Of a stretch of DNA of 32,000 nucleotides, positions 11,045 through 25,730 are shown piece after piece (the first letter of the stretch is position 1; every line of letters begins with the position of its first letter). The stretch covers positions 1,410,001 through 1,442,000 of the forward strand of contig NC_013202.1 in NCBI RefSeq assembly GCF_000023965.1. The letters run 5' to 3'. Position numbers and translations under genes: made by a program. This DNA comes from Halomicrobium mukohataei DSM 12286 (GTDB lineage: Archaea; Halobacteriota; Halobacteria; Halobacteriales; Haloarculaceae). The notes under the pieces were generated by a model. It saw nothing but the letters and a program-made list of their open reading frames with translations. It did no database searches and was not told the origin of the DNA.

Positions 11045-11860
11045 TCACCCGGTCCGAAAGGACAGATCCAGCGTCGGCGCGGAGTGAGTGAGACTGCCCA
11101 TCGAGAGCACATCGACGCCGGTCGCGGCGTAGTCGGGGACCGTCTCGACGGTGATCCCGCCCGAGGCCTCGGTGAGTGCGTCGGCGTCGCTCTCAGCCAC
11201 GAGATCGACGGCTTCCCTCGTTTCTTCGGGCGTCATGTTGTCCAGCAGAACGATGTCTGCGCCGGCCTCGGCGGCCAGCGGAGCGTCGGCTGACTCCTCG
11301 ACTTCCACGTCGAGTTGGGTGGCAAACGAGGCTCGCTCGCGGAAGTGCTCGATCGCGCCTTCGAGGCCCATCTCGGCGACGTGGTTGTCCTTGACCATCA
11401 CCATATGAGAGAGGTCGAGCCGGTGGGTGTCGCCGCCTGCCGCGACGACAGCTCGCTTCTCGACGCCGCGGAGGCCGGGCGTGGTCTTGCGCGTCGCGGC
11501 GATCCGCACGTCCTCGTCTACTTCGCGGGCGGCGGCGACCGCGGCGTCGGTCTTCGTCGCGATGCCGGCGGCGTGGCCGGTGATGTTGACCGCCACGCGC
11601 TCGCCGCGTAGCACCGCTTGGGCCGGCCCTTCGACCCGGAGGACCACGTCGCCCGGCTCGATCAGTGTACCGTCGTCGGCGCGCTCGGTCACGGCTACGT
11701 CGAGGTAGTCGAAGACGGCTGCGGCGGCGTCGAGCCCTGCGACGACGCCGGCCTCCTTGGCGACGAGTCGCCCGGTCGTCTCGCCCGGCACGTCGTTGGT
11801 CACGTCGTGATGGCCCACGTCCTCGCGGAGCCACCGCTCGATGTCGCTGTCGGTGAGCAT
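11045..11860 (-). CDS. nadC: nicotinate-nucleotide pyrophosphorylase (quinolinate phosphoribosyltransferase)
   Basis: Within ORF 11045..12445. The true start is MLTDSDIERWLREDVGHHDVT at 11860. Its ATG shares one base with the nadB TGA (TGATG). QPRTase blocks are present: TRKTTPGLR, GGDTHRLDLS, MVKDNH, LLDNM. Confidence 0.9.
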   Translation of the reverse strand: MLTDSDIERWLREDVGHHDVTNDVPGETTGRLVAKEAGVVAGLDAAAAVFDYLDVAVTERADDGTLIEPGDVVLRVEGPAQAVLRGERVAVNITGHAAGIATKTDAAVAAAREVDEDVRIAATRKTTPGLRGVEKRAVVAAGGDTHRLDLSHMVMVKDNHVAEMGLEGAIEHFRERASFATQLDVEVEESADAPLAAEAGADIVLLDNMTPEETREAVDLVAESDADALTEASGGITVETVPDYAATGVDVLSMGSLTHSAPTLDLSFRTG

Positions 11861-13512
11861 CAGTCGTCGGCCTGTGTTTCGGGCTGCTGGGCCGCTTCGT
11901 CGTCGGTCACCACGTAGTGAGTGCCGACGCTCTCGTCGTTCTCCAGTGCGTGGCGAGTCACCAGCAGCGCCGTCACGCTGGCGTTGCGCAGTTCGTACAG
12001 CGACCGGGAGGTACGGGTGCGGACGTAGGCGTCGACCTCGCCCTTGAGCCGTCGGAGCACCCCCAGCGCCCGGTTCAGGTCTGCCGGATCGCGTTCGAGG
12101 CCGACGTACTCCTCGGTCACGCGGCGCAGGCGGTGGAACTTCTGGCGGGCGAAGTCCTCGGGCAGATCGGGGTCTCGCTCCAGCAGGTCCGGTGCCTCGA
12201 TGACCTCGGCCTCGTTGCCGGCGGCGTCGGCACCGGCGCGAAGGCCCCAGACCAGCCCTTCGAGCAGGCTCGTCGAGGCCAGTCGGTTCGCACCGTGGAC
12301 GCCGGTGCGAGCACACTCGCCGACGGCGTACAGGCGGTCGAGGCTCGTCTGTCCACGGTCGTCGACGGCGACGCCGCCACAGAGGAAGTGTTCGGCGGGT
12401 GCGACCGGGATACCCTCGGTCCAGTCGACACCGCGGTCCTCGCACTTCTCGACGAGCCCGGGGAACTCGCTCTCGAAGTCCAGCGGGCTCACGTCCAGCA
12501 CGACGGTGCCAGTCGCCTCGCGCTCGGCGGCGACCGCACGCGCGACCACGTCGCGAGGAGCGAGTTCGGCGTCCGTGTGGTAGTCTGGCATGAATCGCTC
12601 GCCACCGGGAGACTCCGTCTCCCGAGCCTCCGAGTCAGAAGACTCGGAGACGTCGCCGTTCCGGAGGAGTGCGCCCTCGCCCCGGACGGCCTCGCTGAGG
12701 AGGAAGCCGTCTTCCCCGTCTTCTGCGGCATAGGCGGTCGGGTGGAACTGAACGAACTCCATGTCCTCGACGTCCGCGCCAGCAAGGGCCGCCATGGCGA
12801 TGCCGTCGCCGGTCGAGCCAGTCGGATTCGTCGAGTGGGTGAACAGGTCACCAATACCGCCGGTGGCCAGCACGGTCGCGCCGGCGTAGACGGGCGAGTA
12901 CTCGCCGTCGGATTCGAGCATCGCGCCGTGGACCCGCCCCTCGTGGCGGATCAGATCGAGCGCGGCCGTGTCGTCTCGCATCTCCACGTTCTCGTGATCG
13001 TCGAGATAGTTCAGGAACGGGATATGGATGTGCTTGCCCGTCGCGGCGTCGACGTGGAGGATTCGGTCCTCGCTGTGGGCGGCCTCGCGTCCGAAGTCGA
13101 ACTCCTCGTCTCCGTCGCCGTCGTTCTCGCTCACGGGTCGTTCCTCCCCGTTCGCCCGTTCCGAGGACTCCCGCTGGTCGTCCTCGCCCTCGACATCAAA
13201 TTCCACGTCCAGCGTCTCGACGAGCACGTCACGGACTGCCTCGTTGGCGTTCTCGACGAGCACGTCGACCGCGTCGGGGTCGGCCGTGTTGTCAGAGGCC
13301 GCGAGGATGTCCTGCTTGAACTGCTCGGGGTGGTCGCGGGCGACGGCGATGCCACCCTGTGCCCACCAGGAGGAAGCCCCCTCGGGCCGCGTTGCCTTTG
13401 TCGCGACGACGACGTTCTCGCCCTGGCGGGCGGCGGCGAGTGCCGCGGCGAGGCCGGCAATCCCGGAGCCCACGACGAGCACGTCAGTCGTCTCGTGGTC
13501 TGTTCCACTCAT
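11860..13512 (-). CDS. nadB: L-aspartate oxidase
   Basis: 550 aa. The FAD-binding N-terminus is DVLVVGSGIAGLAAAL. Further blocks are AQGGIA, ATGG, GDGIAMA, FHPT and HGANRLASTSLLEGLV. Confidence 0.95.
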   Translation of the reverse strand: MSGTDHETTDVLVVGSGIAGLAAALAAARQGENVVVATKATRPEGASSWWAQGGIAVARDHPEQFKQDILAASDNTADPDAVDVLVENANEAVRDVLVETLDVEFDVEGEDDQRESSERANGEERPVSENDGDGDEEFDFGREAAHSEDRILHVDAATGKHIHIPFLNYLDDHENVEMRDDTAALDLIRHEGRVHGAMLESDGEYSPVYAGATVLATGGIGDLFTHSTNPTGSTGDGIAMAALAGADVEDMEFVQFHPTAYAAEDGEDGFLLSEAVRGEGALLRNGDVSESSDSEARETESPGGERFMPDYHTDAELAPRDVVARAVAAEREATGTVVLDVSPLDFESEFPGLVEKCEDRGVDWTEGIPVAPAEHFLCGGVAVDDRGQTSLDRLYAVGECARTGVHGANRLASTSLLEGLVWGLRAGADAAGNEAEVIEAPDLLERDPDLPEDFARQKFHRLRRVTEEYVGLERDPADLNRALGVLRRLKGEVDAYVRTRTSRSLYELRNASVTALLVTRHALENDESVGTHYVVTDDEAAQQPETQADD

Positions 13513-21334: not shown

Positions 21335-23785
21335 CTACTGCCAGTCGACCAGATCAGACTGGTAGTAGTTGACGTTCGCCTGCGCCCAGCGTGGGCCCTG
21401 CAGGGCCAGACGCTGGCTGAACGCGTCGAAGTCGCCGATATCGGACGACGACGACCAGCCCAGTTCCGCGATGGCCGCCAGCCGCGGGAACACCATGTAC
21501 TCGATGTCGTCCTGGGTCTCGACGAACTCCGTCCACAGCGGTGCCTCGACGCCGGCGACCGAGGACTCGTCGACGCCGTCGATGTAGCTGCCCGGATCCC
21601 AGGTGTAGGCGTCCTCGACCGAGACCGGTCCCGCCCAGTCCTGGCCCACACCGTCCTGATAGTTGTAGTCTTGATCGAGGTACGCGAGGTGGGCGGGCGA
21701 GGCGATGACGTCGTTGCCCTCGCTGGCCCGGGCCGCGACCTCCGGGGCCTGTGCGTCGGTTCCCCAGTAGTGGAGGAGCGCAGACGTAACGGGCTCCGTG
21801 CTGGCGATCTGGTGCCATCCGATGGGGGTCTTTCCGGCGTCCTCGATCATCGGGAGGACCGCGTCGATGAACTCCTCGTACTTGGCATCCGACAGCACGT
21901 CGGCTTCGTCGCCTCCGACGTGGAAGTACGGGCCGTCCGTCATCTCGGCGACCGCGCTGATGACGTCGGCTGCGAACTGGAGACTCGTCTCCTTGTGCTC
22001 GTCGTCCATGCACAGCGTGGTGTCGCCGACGTTGATGCCGGTGTCTTCCTCGCGTTTCGTGTCGTCACAGTTCAGTTCCGCGTACGACTCCAGGGCCGCC
22101 CCGGTGTGGCCGGGCATGTCGATCTCCGGGACGACCGTCATGTGGCGATCCTGCGCGTACTGGATGATCTCCTGGTAGTCGGCCTTCGTGAAGTAGCCGC
22201 CGGGCCCGCCGTCGACCTCCGAGTCTGCCCCTTCGTCGGTGAGGTTCGGCCAGTCGTCGATCTCGATACGCCAGCCCTGGTCGTCGGTCAGGTGCAGGTG
22301 CAGGTGATTGATCTTGTAGGCCGCCACCTGGTCGATGAACTCCTTGACGACCGACTTGTCGAAGAAGTGCCGTGCCACGTCGAGCATCGCGCCGCGGTAC
22401 TCGAAGCGCGGTGTGTCGGTGACCGAACCGCCGGGGACGACCCAGTCGACGGACTGATCGGTGTCGGCCTCGACCGCCGCCGGGAGCACCTGGCGAAGCG
22501 ACTGGACGCCGTAGAACAGCCCCGCGGCCTCGTTGGCTCGGATCGTGACGCCGTCGCTGTCGACGCTCATCTCGTAGCCCTCGTCGCCGACCGACGAGGG
22601 AGCGCCGTTGAGCAACAGCGCGATGCTGTCCGCGGACGCGGACGAGCCACTCTCGACGGACAGATCGAAGCCGGTCGCCGGCCCCAGCAGGTCGGCGAGG
22701 TACTGTCCGACTTCGGTCCCGCTGCCCTCGGCGACGATCGTCGTCGAGGACGTGATCTCGAAGCCGTCGTCGGCGGTCGTGATGTCGCCCGGCTTCGGCA
22801 CGAGATCGGCCAGCGTCTTCGTGACTGGCTCGGGCGGCCCACAGGCGGTGATCTGCTTCCAGGGGCCTCCATCGCTACTGGGCTCGTCGCCCTTGCTCCA
22901 CCACTTGGCTTCCCAGAGCGTGCCGTCGTAGATGACCTGGTCGCCGCCGGTGTACGTCGTTCCGGAGTCCCACTCCGAGACGCCGCTACACTCGCCGCCG
23001 TCGCCGCCGACGCTGACTGTCGTCGCGTTGGTGTCGGTCGCACCGTCGTCGTCGGTGACGGTGAGTGTGATCGTGTACTCGCCCGACGAGTCGTACGTGT
23101 GGGTCGCGGTCTGACCGCTGGCGGTCGCGTCGTCGCCGAAGTCCCAGGCGTACGACGAAATCGACCCGTCGGCGTCCGAGGAGTCGGCAGCGTCGACGGT
23201 CACCGACTCGCCCGTCGTCGGCGAGGACGGCGAGACGGTGAACGACGCGTTCGGAGCCTCGTTGTCGCTTTCCGAGACGGACACCGTCGTCGATGCCGTC
23301 CCGCTCGCGCCGTCGTCGTCGGTGACGGTGAGTGTGACCGTGTAATCGCCTGCAGAGCCATACGTGTGACTCGCGGTCTGTCCGGTCGCCGTGTCGCCGT
23401 CGCCAAAGTCCCAGGCGTACGAACTCACGGAGCCGTCCGGATCGGACGAGCCCGACGCGTCGAAGGTGACGGACTCGCCCGGCGCGGGTGTACTGATGCT
23501 CGCCGTGAACGACGCGACCGGAGCCTCGTTCTCGGTGTCGCCACTACAGTCGCCGATCTTCGTCCAGACCGAGTCGCTCTCTTCGGGTTCGTTGGCCTGG
23601 GTCCACCACTCGGCTTCCCAGAGAACGTCGTCGTAAACGACGCGGTCGCCGCCGTTGTAGGCGGTGCCGGATTGCCACTGCTGAACGTCGCTGCAATCTG
23701 CTGCCGATGCGGTCCCGCTGACGCCGATCGCCAGCGCAGACAGTGCCGATGCCTTCCGTAGGATGTTGCGTCGTGTCTCTCTCAT
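21335..23785 (-). CDS. secreted GH20 beta-N-acetylhexosaminidase with CBM5/12 - PKD - PKD - CBM5/12 N-terminal modules
   Basis: 816 aa. The Tat signal is MRETRRNILRKASALSALAIGVSGTASA. There are two W..G..Y..GD.V.Y....WEA.WW modules and two PKD modules (F.AS.S.D.DG.I..Y.WDFGD....G....H.Y...G.Y.V.L.V.DD.G). The GH20 core has HLHLTDDQGWRIEI and FHVGGDEA. Confidence 0.9.
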   Translation of the reverse strand: MRETRRNILRKASALSALAIGVSGTASAADCSDVQQWQSGTAYNGGDRVVYDDVLWEAEWWTQANEPEESDSVWTKIGDCSGDTENEAPVASFTASISTPAPGESVTFDASGSSDPDGSVSSYAWDFGDGDTATGQTASHTYGSAGDYTVTLTVTDDDGASGTASTTVSVSESDNEAPNASFTVSPSSPTTGESVTVDAADSSDADGSISSYAWDFGDDATASGQTATHTYDSSGEYTITLTVTDDDGATDTNATTVSVGGDGGECSGVSEWDSGTTYTGGDQVIYDGTLWEAKWWSKGDEPSSDGGPWKQITACGPPEPVTKTLADLVPKPGDITTADDGFEITSSTTIVAEGSGTEVGQYLADLLGPATGFDLSVESGSSASADSIALLLNGAPSSVGDEGYEMSVDSDGVTIRANEAAGLFYGVQSLRQVLPAAVEADTDQSVDWVVPGGSVTDTPRFEYRGAMLDVARHFFDKSVVKEFIDQVAAYKINHLHLHLTDDQGWRIEIDDWPNLTDEGADSEVDGGPGGYFTKADYQEIIQYAQDRHMTVVPEIDMPGHTGAALESYAELNCDDTKREEDTGINVGDTTLCMDDEHKETSLQFAADVISAVAEMTDGPYFHVGGDEADVLSDAKYEEFIDAVLPMIEDAGKTPIGWHQIASTEPVTSALLHYWGTDAQAPEVAARASEGNDVIASPAHLAYLDQDYNYQDGVGQDWAGPVSVEDAYTWDPGSYIDGVDESSVAGVEAPLWTEFVETQDDIEYMVFPRLAAIAELGWSSSSDIGDFDAFSQRLALQGPRWAQANVNYYQSDLVDWQ
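23009..23530 (-). repeat. tandem duplication encoding two PKD modules (about 255 nt each, diverged)
   Basis: Roughly aa 86-170 and aa 175-259 of the hexosaminidase align. Nucleotide runs such as gtcgtcgtcggtgacggtgagtgtga recur. Boundaries are approximate. Confidence 0.7.
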
Positions 23786-23970
23786 GTGTTCGAATGTCGC
23801 CTTCGGCAGTCGCTCGCTGGCCGGGTCGGGCCGACCGATAGTCCGCGCGACCGCACGGTGTCCACATCCCCCAACCGGGCCGTTGCGATCCGAAGCGTCC
23901 GTCGTCGATCGTCTCCCTGTACTCGAACTGACGGATCACACGCCAGTCAACACTAGCCACGAACCCTCAC

Positions 23971-24007
23971 GTATTAGTACATTTCCACTGTATTTTTATA
24001 TAAAGAG
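23971..24007. promoter_or_regulatory. AT-rich block with TATA-like sequences readable on both strands (tatttttatataaag)
   Basis: It is the only strongly AT-rich patch in the 667-bp spacer. It lies about 190-220 nt upstream of the hexosaminidase ATG (23785), which implies a long leader. It could equally drive a plus-strand transcript antisense to the icd 3' region. Confidence 0.35.
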
Positions 24008-24146
24008 TTGTAGATGTGTATCGAACTGGGCGGCGTCTGGCGAGACCGTGCCAGTCGGGCGAGAAAGTGAACGGACGGGAATGGATGTGTCCAGTCTGCA
24101 GGGACTGCTGTGGACGATCGCACCGATCCGAGACGAGAGAACAGTC

Positions 24147-24473
24147 GAACGGCGACGACGTCGGTGGCGCGAGCGTCTCGCCGTTCACGCGGTGACGCTA
24201 CGCGAGCCAGGCGACTCGCTTACGCGAACTTCTCGATGTCCTCAGAACGCAGGACGTTCTGACTGCCCGAAAAATCGTCTTCAGGCCAGTTCTTCGATGT
24301 TCTGACGGCGCAGCCGTCAGAGGACGAGAAACGGTCTACGACAGTTTCTCGATGTTTTCGCGGCTACGCCGCGAAAGCCCGAGAAGCTTGCGTACGCAAG
24401 CTTCTCGATGTTCCCGGAAGTCTCCGATTTCCGGGCGCACGAAAAGTTGGCCTTAGGCCAACTTTTCGATGTT
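24147..24473 (-). repeat. array of six copies (one genuine, five extragenic) of the icd 3'-terminal 21-nt core, each embedded in hairpins; period 55-61 bp
   Basis: Cores lie at 24453-24473 (true end), 24392-24412, 24336-24356, 24281-24301, 24220-24240 and 24165-24185. All contain cgatgt or a variant. See the findings for minus-strand translations and stems. Confidence 0.85.
24441..24467 (-). terminator. perfect 12-bp hairpin with the icd TAA stop codon as its 3-nt loop, ending in a U4 run on the transcript
   Basis: gaaaagttggcc (24441-24452), tta (24453-24455), ggccaacttttc (24456-24467). On the minus-strand RNA this reads GAAAAGUUGGCC-UAA-GGCCAACUUUUC. Confidence 0.45.
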
Positions 24474-25730
24474 TTCGACGATGGCGTCCGAGTACTCCTC
24501 GGTGCCGAGCTTCTCGGCGTCTTCGAGCTGGCGTTCGAGGTCGTAGGTGACCGTGCCCGAGGAGATCGTCTCCTCGACGGCGTCGCGAACGAGGTCGGCT
24601 GCGTCCTTCCAGCCCATGTAGTCGAACATCAGACGGCCCGAGAGGATCATCGCGGTCGGGTTGGCCATGTTCTGGCCGGCGCGTTTCGGGGCCGAGCCGT
24701 GGACGGGCTCTGCGAGCACGCGGGCGTCACCGAAGTTCGCGCCGGGCGCGATGCCGAGGCCGCCGATCTGTGCGCCGGCGGCGTCCGAGAGGTAGTCGCC
24801 GTTGAGGTTCGGCATGGCGAGAACGCTGAACTCGTCGGTCCGGAGCTGCATCCACTGGAGCATCGCGTCGGCGAGTCTGGACTCGACCATGACGGCGTCC
24901 TCGGGAATGTCGATCTCGTCCTGGGTCTCCCAGAGAGAGTCGGGCGCGGCGAAGACCTCGTCGTCGGGGTACTCCTCGTCGGCGACTTCCATGCCCCACT
25001 CGGTGAACTGGCCCTCGGTGAACTTCATGATGTTGCCCTTGCCGACGAGCGTGACCTTGTCGCGGTCGTGCTCGATGGCGTAGTCGATGGCCTTGCGGAC
25101 CAGCCGCTTGGAACCGAACTCGGTGATCGGCTTGATGCCGATGCCGATCGGGCCGTCGTGCATCACGTCGTCGAAGCCCATGTCCTCCTCGACGAACTCC
25201 CGGACCTGCTCGACCTCTTCGGTGCCGGCCTCCCACTCGATGCCGGCGTAGACGTCTTCCGTGTTCTCACGGAAGGTGACCATGTCCATCTCCTCGGGCG
25301 CTTTCATCGGCGACGGGACGCCGTCGAGGTAGTAGGTCGGTCGGACGTTCGAGTAGAAGTCGAGCGTCTGGCGCAGCGCGACGTTGAGCGAGCGGAAGCC
25401 AGCGCCGACCGGGGTCGTCAGCGGCCCCTTGATGGCGACGCGGTGCTCGTCGATCGCGTTGACGGTGTCGTCGGGGAGGTTCTCGTCGTACTTCTCTCGG
25501 GCGGACTCGCCAGCGAAGACGCGCATCCACGAGATCTCGCGGCCTGTGGCGTTCGCGGCGGCCTCCAGGACCTTCTGGGCGGCCGGTCCCACGTCCTTCC
25601 CGATGCCGTCCCCGTGGATGATGGGGACGATCGGATTCTCAGGAATATCGAGTTCGTCGTTGTCCTCGTCGACGACCTCGATCTTCTCGCCTTCGGCAGG
25701 CACCTCGACCTTGTCGTAATCGTAGCTCAT
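24453..25730 (-). CDS. icd: isocitrate dehydrogenase (NADP-dependent)
   Basis: Within ORF 24453..26348. The true start is MSYDYDKVEVPAEGEKI (25730). Blocks present: IIHGDGIGKDV, IKGPLTTPVG, FRSLNVALRQ, NLNGDYLSDA, GGLGIAPGAN, EPVHGSAPK. A TATA-like box lies 24-29 nt upstream. Confidence 0.95.
   Translation of the reverse strand: MSYDYDKVEVPAEGEKIEVVDEDNDELDIPENPIVPIIHGDGIGKDVGPAAQKVLEAAANATGREISWMRVFAGESAREKYDENLPDDTVNAIDEHRVAIKGPLTTPVGAGFRSLNVALRQTLDFYSNVRPTYYLDGVPSPMKAPEEMDMVTFRENTEDVYAGIEWEAGTEEVEQVREFVEEDMGFDDVMHDGPIGIGIKPITEFGSKRLVRKAIDYAIEHDRDKVTLVGKGNIMKFTEGQFTEWGMEVADEEYPDDEVFAAPDSLWETQDEIDIPEDAVMVESRLADAMLQWMQLRTDEFSVLAMPNLNGDYLSDAAGAQIGGLGIAPGANFGDARVLAEPVHGSAPKRAGQNMANPTAMILSGRLMFDYMGWKDAADLVRDAVEETISSGTVTYDLERQLEDAEKLGTEEYSDAIVENIEKLA

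Follow-up and report, generated by a model that had tools for sequence, protein, structure and literature searches.

The closest described analogues of the sequences reported here are the bacterial repetitive extragenic palindromic (REP) and bacterial interspersed mosaic element (BIME) arrays and, after these, the palindrome-associated transposable elements (PATEs) of Haloquadratum, which are derived from insertion sequences (IS) of the IS200/IS605 type. REP/BIME arrays and the REP doublets forming hairpins (REPINs) of E. coli and Pseudomonas are thought to be mobilised by REP-associated tyrosine transposases (RAYT), and to our knowledge work on REP-like mobile hairpins has been confined almost entirely to bacteria. 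There, a REP sometimes provides the gene upstream of it with its stop codon, REPs insert into existing palindromes, and they are occasionally found inside coding genes (PMC3733652). PATEs are transposase-free IS200/IS605 derivatives in Haloquadratum walsbyi, including a 52-bp form consisting of the termini only (PMC3119063). This report on PATE/SMR in Haloquadratum is the closest description we found, a literature search outside subscription journals having returned no description of haloarchaeal REP-like or hairpin repeats or of repeats downstream of icd. Here, we analyse a stretch of 32,000 nt of Halomicrobium mukohataei, called the window, in which the last codons of icd, encoding NADP isocitrate dehydrogenase, recur several times downstream of the gene within a train of hairpins.

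Read on the icd strand, the repeated unit consists of AACATC, a palindrome P formed by the gene end itself, a linker of 4-5 nt and an unrelated hairpin S, followed by the RACATC opening the next unit. As in REP/BIME arrays, short (20-40 nt) imperfect palindromes are clustered downstream of a gene, the palindromes being GC-rich, 20-35 nt long and composed of a conserved foot and a variable top, the clusters running head-to-tail directly downstream of genes and the copy number varying between relatives. In contrast to REP/BIME sequences with their tens to hundreds of copies, icd arrays are archaeal and apparently low in copy number per genome, with one array in the 32-kb window and none elsewhere in 590 kb around icd from 80 genomes. 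The haloarchaeal units have no GTAG/CGTC tag but a TAGCA-type linker and a 3' RACATC tail, their two hairpins are mutually unrelated instead of being inverted copies, and one hairpin of the icd unit copies the end of the host gene. No RAYT-like gene has been linked to the haloarchaeal hairpins, the only association seen being with TnpB elements.

Another described system concerns the same gene, i.e. e14 and phage 21 at E. coli icd, where a replacement for the gene end is carried, or formed anew, by the entering DNA and the former end persists downstream as a pseudo-end. The displaced copies in H. mukohataei are likewise former translated ends, but the haloarchaeal element comprises 55-60 nt without genes or integrase, several generations of ends are stacked, many genera are involved, and the copies lie 55-61 nt apart with no multi-kb integrase element between functional end and pseudo-end.

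Displaced icd ends and the hairpin train of H. mukohataei

The icd protein of the window is identical to WP_015762466 by protein comparison, and the array is also present in CP045142 and in the assemblies of five sequencing runs (SRR017869-SRR017873). Six 21-nt cores of the icd end lie on the minus strand at a spacing of 61, 56, 55, 61 and 55 nt, reproducing exactly the coordinates, translations and spacing given in a preliminary description of this DNA. The gene, the units with their cores and the S hairpins are:

24453..25730, minus strand: icd, NADP isocitrate dehydrogenase, 425 aa, C-terminus ...AIVENIEKLA*; from translation, Pfam Iso_dh and identity to WP_015762466
24440..24473, minus strand: unit 1, true end AACATC with palindrome P1, 13-bp stem CGAAAAGTTGGCC / GGCCAACTTTTCG, the loop being the stop codon TAA; core 1 at 24473-24453, NIEKLA*
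24413..24435, minus strand: hairpin S_A (CCCGGAAATC GGA GACTTCCGGG), then AACATC; from the hairpin search
24380..24412, minus strand: unit 2, displaced copy P2, a perfect 13-bp palindrome; core 2 at 24412-24392, NIEKLAY
24356..24376, minus strand: hairpin S_B (TTTCGCGGC GTA GCCGCGAAA); related hairpins in loci L006, L028 and L163
24325..24356, minus strand: unit 3, displaced copy P3, 12-nt arms 92% complementary; core 3 at 24356-24336, NIEKLS*
24301..24321, minus strand: hairpin S_B' (TCTGACGGC TGC GCCGTCAGA); same type in L062
24268..24301, minus strand: unit 4, displaced copy P4 with decayed 3' arm; core 4 at 24301-24281, NIEELA*
24242..24262, minus strand: hairpin S_C (TCAGAACG TCCT GCGTTCTGA), GGCAG before and GGACATC after
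24201..24240, minus strand: unit 5, displaced copy P5, hairpin partly decayed, orthologous to the second copy of H. katesii (L001); core 5 at 24240-24220, DIEKFA*
24147..24186, minus strand: unit 6, most decayed copy and possibly the oldest end, today forming the 5' arm of a long, imperfect hairpin of its own, conserved in H. katesii; core 6 at 24185-24165, NGETLAP

Comparison of copies 2-5 with the true end over 24 codons yields 11 identical, 9 synonymous and 4 non-synonymous codons, exactly as counted before. The underlying 16 nucleotide differences are distributed over codon positions 1, 2 and 3 as 6, 0 and 10, second positions being invariant. Random placement of an equal number of changes per copy gave four or fewer non-synonymous codons in 0 of 20,000 trials. 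The preliminary description had considered that hairpin constraint might produce this pattern by coincidence; in a permutation with the changes confined to hairpin-stem positions, four or fewer non-synonymous codons occurred at a frequency of 0.0001, so that the synonymous excess is not explained by the palindrome constraint alone. The motif AACATCGAGAA, allowing at most one mismatch, occurs six times in the window compared to an expectation of 0.35, four of the occurrences lying within the array. The sixth copy is weak, matching the consensus at 14 of 18 positions in phase with the period, for which we roughly estimate a chance of ~0.01-0.02.

The hairpin train and the compensation in the 3' arms had not been noticed before. 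The stretch downstream of icd folds into a train of ~10 hairpins with a minimum free energy of -192 kcal/mol compared to -150 +/- 6 for shuffled sequences (z = -7.0), and five of the 23 perfect hairpins with stems of at least 8 bp in the window are located in 24242-24468. The 5' arm of P, CGARAAnnTnnCN, comprises the icd codons for E-K-L-A/S, the stop codon lies in the loop and the 3' arm is complementary, each 'synonymous' change in a 5' arm being compensated by a complementary one in the 3' arm opposite. A stable stop-codon hairpin conserved across species, as expected for an intrinsic-terminator-like structure, applies to P1 only. Between the copies there are only hairpins of 21-27 nt and short linkers, and the S hairpins differ across the five units, comprising one of type A (CCCGGAAATC), two of type B (CGCGGC GTA GCCGCG and CTGACGGC) and one of type C (TCAGAACG). 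Hairpins of the S_A type are also found 3' of icd in Halosimplex, Halorubellus, Halolamina and H. salinisoli and as the first hairpin of two-hairpin doublets at non-icd sites.

Two further attempts at interpretation were abandoned. Counting G:T versus A:C mismatches to separate RNA- from DNA-level structure was dominated by spurious weak hairpins and was not used. The idea that the EKLA tail of icd is itself derived from the element was rejected because Archaeoglobus Icd has a comparable tail, ending ENLQSL; E. coli Icd stops at the residue aligned with ENI.

Ancestry, spread and growth of icd arrays

We compared the icd loci of 80 haloarchaeal species, eight metagenome contigs and four further genomes, altogether 87 distinct loci, a downstream copy being counted only with an exact A[CT]ATCGA anchor. 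There are 44 such copies in 32 of the 87 loci, in genera including Halomicrobium, Halosimplex, Halorhabdus, Haloterrigena, Natrinema, Natronococcus, Halolamina and Salinibaculum; comparable arrays with copies lacking the exact anchor exist in Halorubellus and Halarchaeum. We show that the downstream cores are former translated icd termini and not a non-coding duplication in decay, as had been proposed from the window: they vary at the same positions and with the same bases as real icd ends, codon 7 is a stop in 27 of the 44 (0.6% at 2660 background ATYGA sites), and 10 of the 44 agree at all of 18 nt with the true icd terminus of a different species, no copy (0/44) doing so with its own. It had also been suggested to compare the units of the window with native icd ends elsewhere, and two of them indeed match: the 21 nt of copy 3 recur as the true icd terminus in L019 and L080, and ATCGAAGAACTGGCCTGA of copy 4 does so in L007. 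Shared ancestry or transfer could account for such matches alike.

The number of end copies varies among close relatives, as anticipated, with 5-6 in H. mukohataei, 3 in H. salinisoli (order A...C) and 2 in H. katesii. The P hairpins covary across 30 or more species, RNAalifold reporting double changes at 6 of 9 pairs (34 good hairpins, 26 distinct arms), and in Halolamina (L045) the 3' arm has adapted to an E-to-H change of the 5' arm.

The direction of growth can be read from filled and empty sites. Haloarchaeobius baliensis (L038) carries an insert of 59 nt that the loci L035 and L040 (H. iranensis, strain FL176) do not have, resulting in the order local end, 38 nt (ACAGTTTCTC TGGCA plus an S_A hairpin) and a second copy of the local end, the stop of which is mutated to GAG and which runs into the orthologous downstream DNA. 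The most distal copy in Haloarchaeobius is thus the ancestral end, which has kept its connection to the DNA originally following it. Halosimplex supports this direction by a weaker argument, which uses spacing and a T-run instead of an alignment: in L004 and L011 the last copy, presumably the ancestral end, precedes the T-run terminator at the spacing of relatives without clear S units (L003, L010, L016). In Natronococcus, L061 has one extra gene-proximal unit compared to L063 and L068. These comparisons show that new units enter beside the gene and older ends move downstream, in agreement with the falling hairpin perfection with distance from the gene in the window.

Remodelling of the arrays is evident as well. 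H. katesii (L001) represents a deletion, its first hairpin being a chimera of a P1 5' arm and a P4-type 3' arm, and block duplications are present in L065, in which P1+S_C resembles P3+S_C, and in L163, in which P1 resembles P4 including a rare ATT codon.

As a separate observation, five icd loci (L007, L012, L014, L032, L037) have a different insert of ~85-90 nt directly after the icd stop with AT-rich terminal inverted repeats, e.g. TAGTGATTATTGTAG...CTACAGTAATCACTA. This insert is similar to a miniature inverted-repeat transposable element, suggesting a hotspot at the icd end that receives small elements of more than one kind.

S hairpins and doublets away from icd

We scanned metagenomes with the pattern CAGTCRGAACG-N1-7-CGTTCYGAC and obtained 83 high-GC loci with an S_C hairpin, only 8 of these being at icd. 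The six bases after S_C are GACATC in 29 of the 83 loci and end in CATC in 41, context frequencies that are biased by the selection of the set through one hairpin type. The S_C family thus occupies many non-icd sites in hypersaline metagenomes, with at least 10 recurrent contexts including hairpin trains in intergenic DNA, and in 1.2 Mb of haloarchaeal contigs, a biased sample, there are 51 trains of perfect hairpins. The hairpins show a clear doublet plan, hairpin 1-TAGCA-hairpin 2-GACATC, the first hairpin being preceded by CATC or CATT in most contexts, the 5' flank reading xAGCA and the 3' flank RACATC. L181 contains two tandem doublets, GGCATC/hp-TAGCA-hp-GACATC/hp-TAGCA-hp-GACATG/, and a canonical hp-TAGCA-S_C-GACATC doublet in Halarchaeum has a P-like hairpin in its first position. 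We show S hairpins being dispersed families of small palindromic elements in Halobacteria, usually located 3' of CATC and ending in GACATC, and therefore recreating their own target.

Three diverged lineages (L153, L170 and L161/L173) have in common a 58-nt doublet at GACGACATC/GACGAG in a beta-class carbonic anhydrase gene, the insert being identical in two lineages although their downstream flanks differ at 14 of 51 codons. Intact homologues read ...WVRMTDDIDEACAAQ, and the insert lies between matching GACATC triplet pairs. This doublet is the cleanest evidence of mobility. The insert shifts the frame by +1 and puts a TGA in frame, both halves of the gene still being conserved, so the case would represent either recent independent knockouts or a requirement for frameshifting or bypass.

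In histidine kinase genes (L101, L134, L166; also L142, L149) an S_C hairpin in the HATPase_c domain is read in frame as SSQNASRSDD and is flanked by two DAVEHGST copies, a palindromic coding segment, which differ only by synonymous, mutually compensating changes. The local sequence duplicated at icd and in the kinases amounts to 21-26 nt. The window itself contains a further case, which shows that small hairpin pairs sit inside genes of H. mukohataei too:

12606..12649, minus strand: a pair of adjacent perfect hairpins making up an in-frame insertion of 48 nt in nadB (L-aspartate oxidase, 11860-13512)

These hairpins are CTCCGAGTC TTCT GACTCGGAG and CGGGAGAC GGA GTCTCCCG, the insertion encodes VSESSDSEARETESPG and has a GGCGA direct repeat at both borders, and neither E. 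coli NadB nor any of 11 haloarchaeal homologues of 73-81% identity contains it.

Doublets also lie next to other genes. A tRNA-Ser(TGA) is immediately followed by a doublet (L165 3200-3340, L159, L162), and the tRNA 3' end recurs further downstream in L165, once inverted and once as a second direct copy. The site looks like the icd pattern. In eight loci (L106, L109, L122, L140, L143, L144, L179, L183) a doublet is located ~60 nt after the stop of TnpB (Cas12f1-like TNB domain), within the conserved right-hand end of the element, at the expected position of the omega/reRNA; lists of open reading frames (ORFs) did not reveal which IS carries the doublet in these TnpB contexts. In trpB, encoding tryptophan synthase beta, a doublet in reverse orientation was observed in L095 and L111, its length being frame-preserving and an in-frame TGA being introduced. 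BLAST of the array against plasmids and phages gave nothing beyond one isolated S_C-like hairpin followed by GGACAT on Haloterrigena turkmenica pHTUR01 (L081 2501-2527), a borderline match (E=0.8) situated in an unannotated gap near IS6, TnpB and orc1/cdc6 genes.

The doublet plan resembles IS200/IS605 elements and PATEs in having sub-terminal hairpins at both ends without terminal inverted repeats and in being usually located 3' of a short specific motif, here CATC. The size is similar to that of the minimal PATE form (~52 nt), and one doublet family lies inside the right end of TnpB elements. In contrast to IS200/IS605 elements, the motif is present on both sides of the insert, GACATC forming its right end, and a local duplication of 21-26 nt is possible, neither of which is expected from IS200/IS605 transposition; the comparison is one of plan and does not rest on the sequence of a particular IS. 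Protein-coding genes are also known to tolerate small palindromic mobile elements, namely the bacterial Rickettsia palindromic elements (RPEs; 100-150 bp) and the mitochondrial GC clusters or byp elements, the latter being bypassed by the ribosome. The insertions in the histidine kinases and in nadB, both in frame, and the 58-nt carbonic anhydrase copy resemble these; the sequences yielded no evidence of bypass in the haloarchaeal hairpin-carrying genes.

Origin of the icd array

Taken as a whole, our data make us lean, if not strongly, towards the region being a BIME-like array that arose from a small two-hairpin module plus unequal recombination. According to this model, a module of ~55-60 nt would be added at AACATC/GAG, P taking the place of hairpin 1 of the doublet plan. 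Each addition would leave the last seven codons on both sides of the module, the gene-proximal copy remaining in use and the older end being displaced downstream together with its own hairpin, where it would slowly decay. Unequal recombination among the copies would delete, duplicate and reshuffle units, and any copy returned to the first position would have to encode a workable tail and a stop. We infer two possible routes of entry, either an IS200/IS605-like single-strand insertion 3' of CATC, which fits the tandem doublets and the identical-site insertions, or template switching or unequal recombination via the 9-nt homologies AACATCGAG and CTGTCGTAG. The module may spread through homology between icd loci, possibly following transfer of DNA from one species to another. 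P1 is clearly maintained as a structure, and given the T-run after the last hairpin in some genera, the first hairpin may plausibly act at the 3' end of icd. Most species, however, have no array, and Halomicrobium alone has between 2 and 6 copies; we regard the stack as mainly neutral or selfish.

Several points weigh against this model. No transposase has been linked to the hairpins, and the metagenomic context frequencies come from a set chosen by S_C. No S or P hairpin was found away from the array in ~590 kb around icd from 80 genomes, so the copy number per genome appears to be low, unlike that of bacterial REPs. Modules of the icd type (P+S) were not seen at non-icd sites, and such modules may therefore spread only by homology between icd loci. 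In L038, the lineage-specific CAG codon is present in both 21-nt copies and the 3' arm complements a K-type end; a local duplication, by template switch or staggered cut, around the imported 38 nt therefore fits better than a ready-made module. Finally, the non-coding P2 of H. salinisoli differs between L194 and L195 at two mutually compensating positions (GAT...ATC versus GAC...GTC), the 12-bp palindrome being perfect in both, so hairpins stay perfect after displacement, which could mean function; this perfection suggests either hairpin-templated correction or selection.

A function of the hairpins as 3' untranslated region, serving termination, protection against 3' exonucleases, insulation of the downstream promoter or protein binding, with P as functional module, would agree with the very strong folding (z = -7), the covariation of P, the compensated Halolamina arm and the perfection of displaced copies, and in several Natronococcus species a T6 run follows the last P hairpin as in an intrinsic terminator. 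We nevertheless hold this to be an unlikely origin of the array: anchored copies are present in 32 of 87 loci and the array is missing from most, a single genus has anything from 2 to 6 copies, coding genes are interrupted by the same S hairpins, and a structural role leaves the invariant second codon positions and the in-frame stops unexplained. For the first hairpin it is compatible with, and not exclusive of, the BIME-like model. A purely local tandem array, in which one terminator unit of P and a second hairpin was duplicated in place by slippage or unequal crossing-over without mobile DNA, the copies diverging under selection or quasipalindrome correction and acquiring their coding look by turnover through the first position, is quite unlikely. 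In its favour are unequal recombination, evident from the chimeric H. katesii hairpin, the block duplications in L065 and L163, and the compensated change in the non-coding H. salinisoli copy. However, successive S hairpins belong to different families (A, B, B', C) with close relatives in other genera, families A and C are also found at unrelated loci, the 3' arm of the L038 insert mismatches the local 5' arm, and no downstream copy equals its own real end whereas 10 equal those of other species.

The preliminary description had tentatively explained the stack by repeated integration, after the example of e14 and phage 21, of integrase-bearing elements that were later lost and left their attachment (att) remnants stacked at the icd 3' end. 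The displacement of ends contained in this proposal stands, the copies behaving as displaced ends with new ends added on the gene side; the integrase-bearing elements do not, hairpin modules of ~55-60 nt and unequal recombination taking their place. The integrase model is very improbable since only hairpins of 21-27 nt, conserved across genera, and short linkers separate the copies, precise excision would leave one att site and not two, no distant second icd-end copy exists within 3 kb in the 80 genome loci and the window, and no integrase was called beside icd in the H. mukohataei genome. Phage and plasmid collections gave no convincing match for haloviral or plasmid sequences carrying the icd core, and scans of viral contigs for the P core and S_C returned chance matches only, on non-haloarchaeal contigs. 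A Campbell-type single crossover, which would leave donor bases in one copy, was rejected for L038 because both copies carry local bases. A degenerate or off-target array resembling CRISPR, with ~33-nt repeats duplicated at each insertion of a ~25-nt spacer, would be consistent with the regular spacing of 55-61 nt and with a 'repeat' that seems duplicated when a new piece enters beside the leader-like gene end. It is scarcely credible, as the repeats are not near-identical but differ by 15-30% with the changes compensated within each repeat, and the 'spacers' are not unique foreign sequences but hairpins of few conserved families that are common to genera and also occur singly elsewhere. An Rfam scan of 23500-25000 at E<=10 gave chance matches only and no CRISPR repeat family.

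Going beyond the BIME-like model, we tentatively suggest, with confidence clearly short of even, that Halobacteria might harbour an undescribed family of site-specific mobile hairpin doublets of ~50-60 nt inserting 3' of CATC and regenerating their target, i.e. an archaeal counterpart of REPINs and BIMEs or a minimal IS200/IS605 derivative. One lineage would have captured the terminal icd hairpin as its first hairpin. AACATC/GAG of this essential gene would thereby become a safe harbour, because the module brings replacement last codons and a stop, and repeated homing, including between species, would stack former gene ends. The family would also colonise coding genes, at least one case, the 58-nt, +1-shifting carbonic anhydrase insert, possibly needing frameshifting or bypass.

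A haloarchaeal family with defined plan and target motif would raise the question of its mobiliser, with TnpA, TnpB-linked elements and template switching during replication as candidates. The icd arrays constitute a natural and phylogenetically widespread record of successive gene-end replacements, the strata of which could date insertions and gene flow between haloarchaeal genera, and they show, on a scale of ~55 nt, how insertion of a mobile element into an essential gene can be made harmless by the substitute end that is carried along. For genome annotation, the arrays explain spurious ORFs and hairpin-rich 3' regions and draw attention to hairpins inserted, in frame or with a shift of frame, into nadB, trpB and the genes for histidine kinases and carbonic anhydrase.

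In the window, a sigma-70/terminator scan was uninformative, yielding a single terminator-like match on the antisense strand. A TATA-like AT-rich island is located near position 24000, and the downstream neighbour on the icd strand is a gene for a CBM5/12-PKD protein (21335-23785). Inside this gene, downstream of the array, we observed a 267-nt tandem repeat (23038-23534, 1.9 copies, 77% identity), which probably represents duplicated PKD domains.

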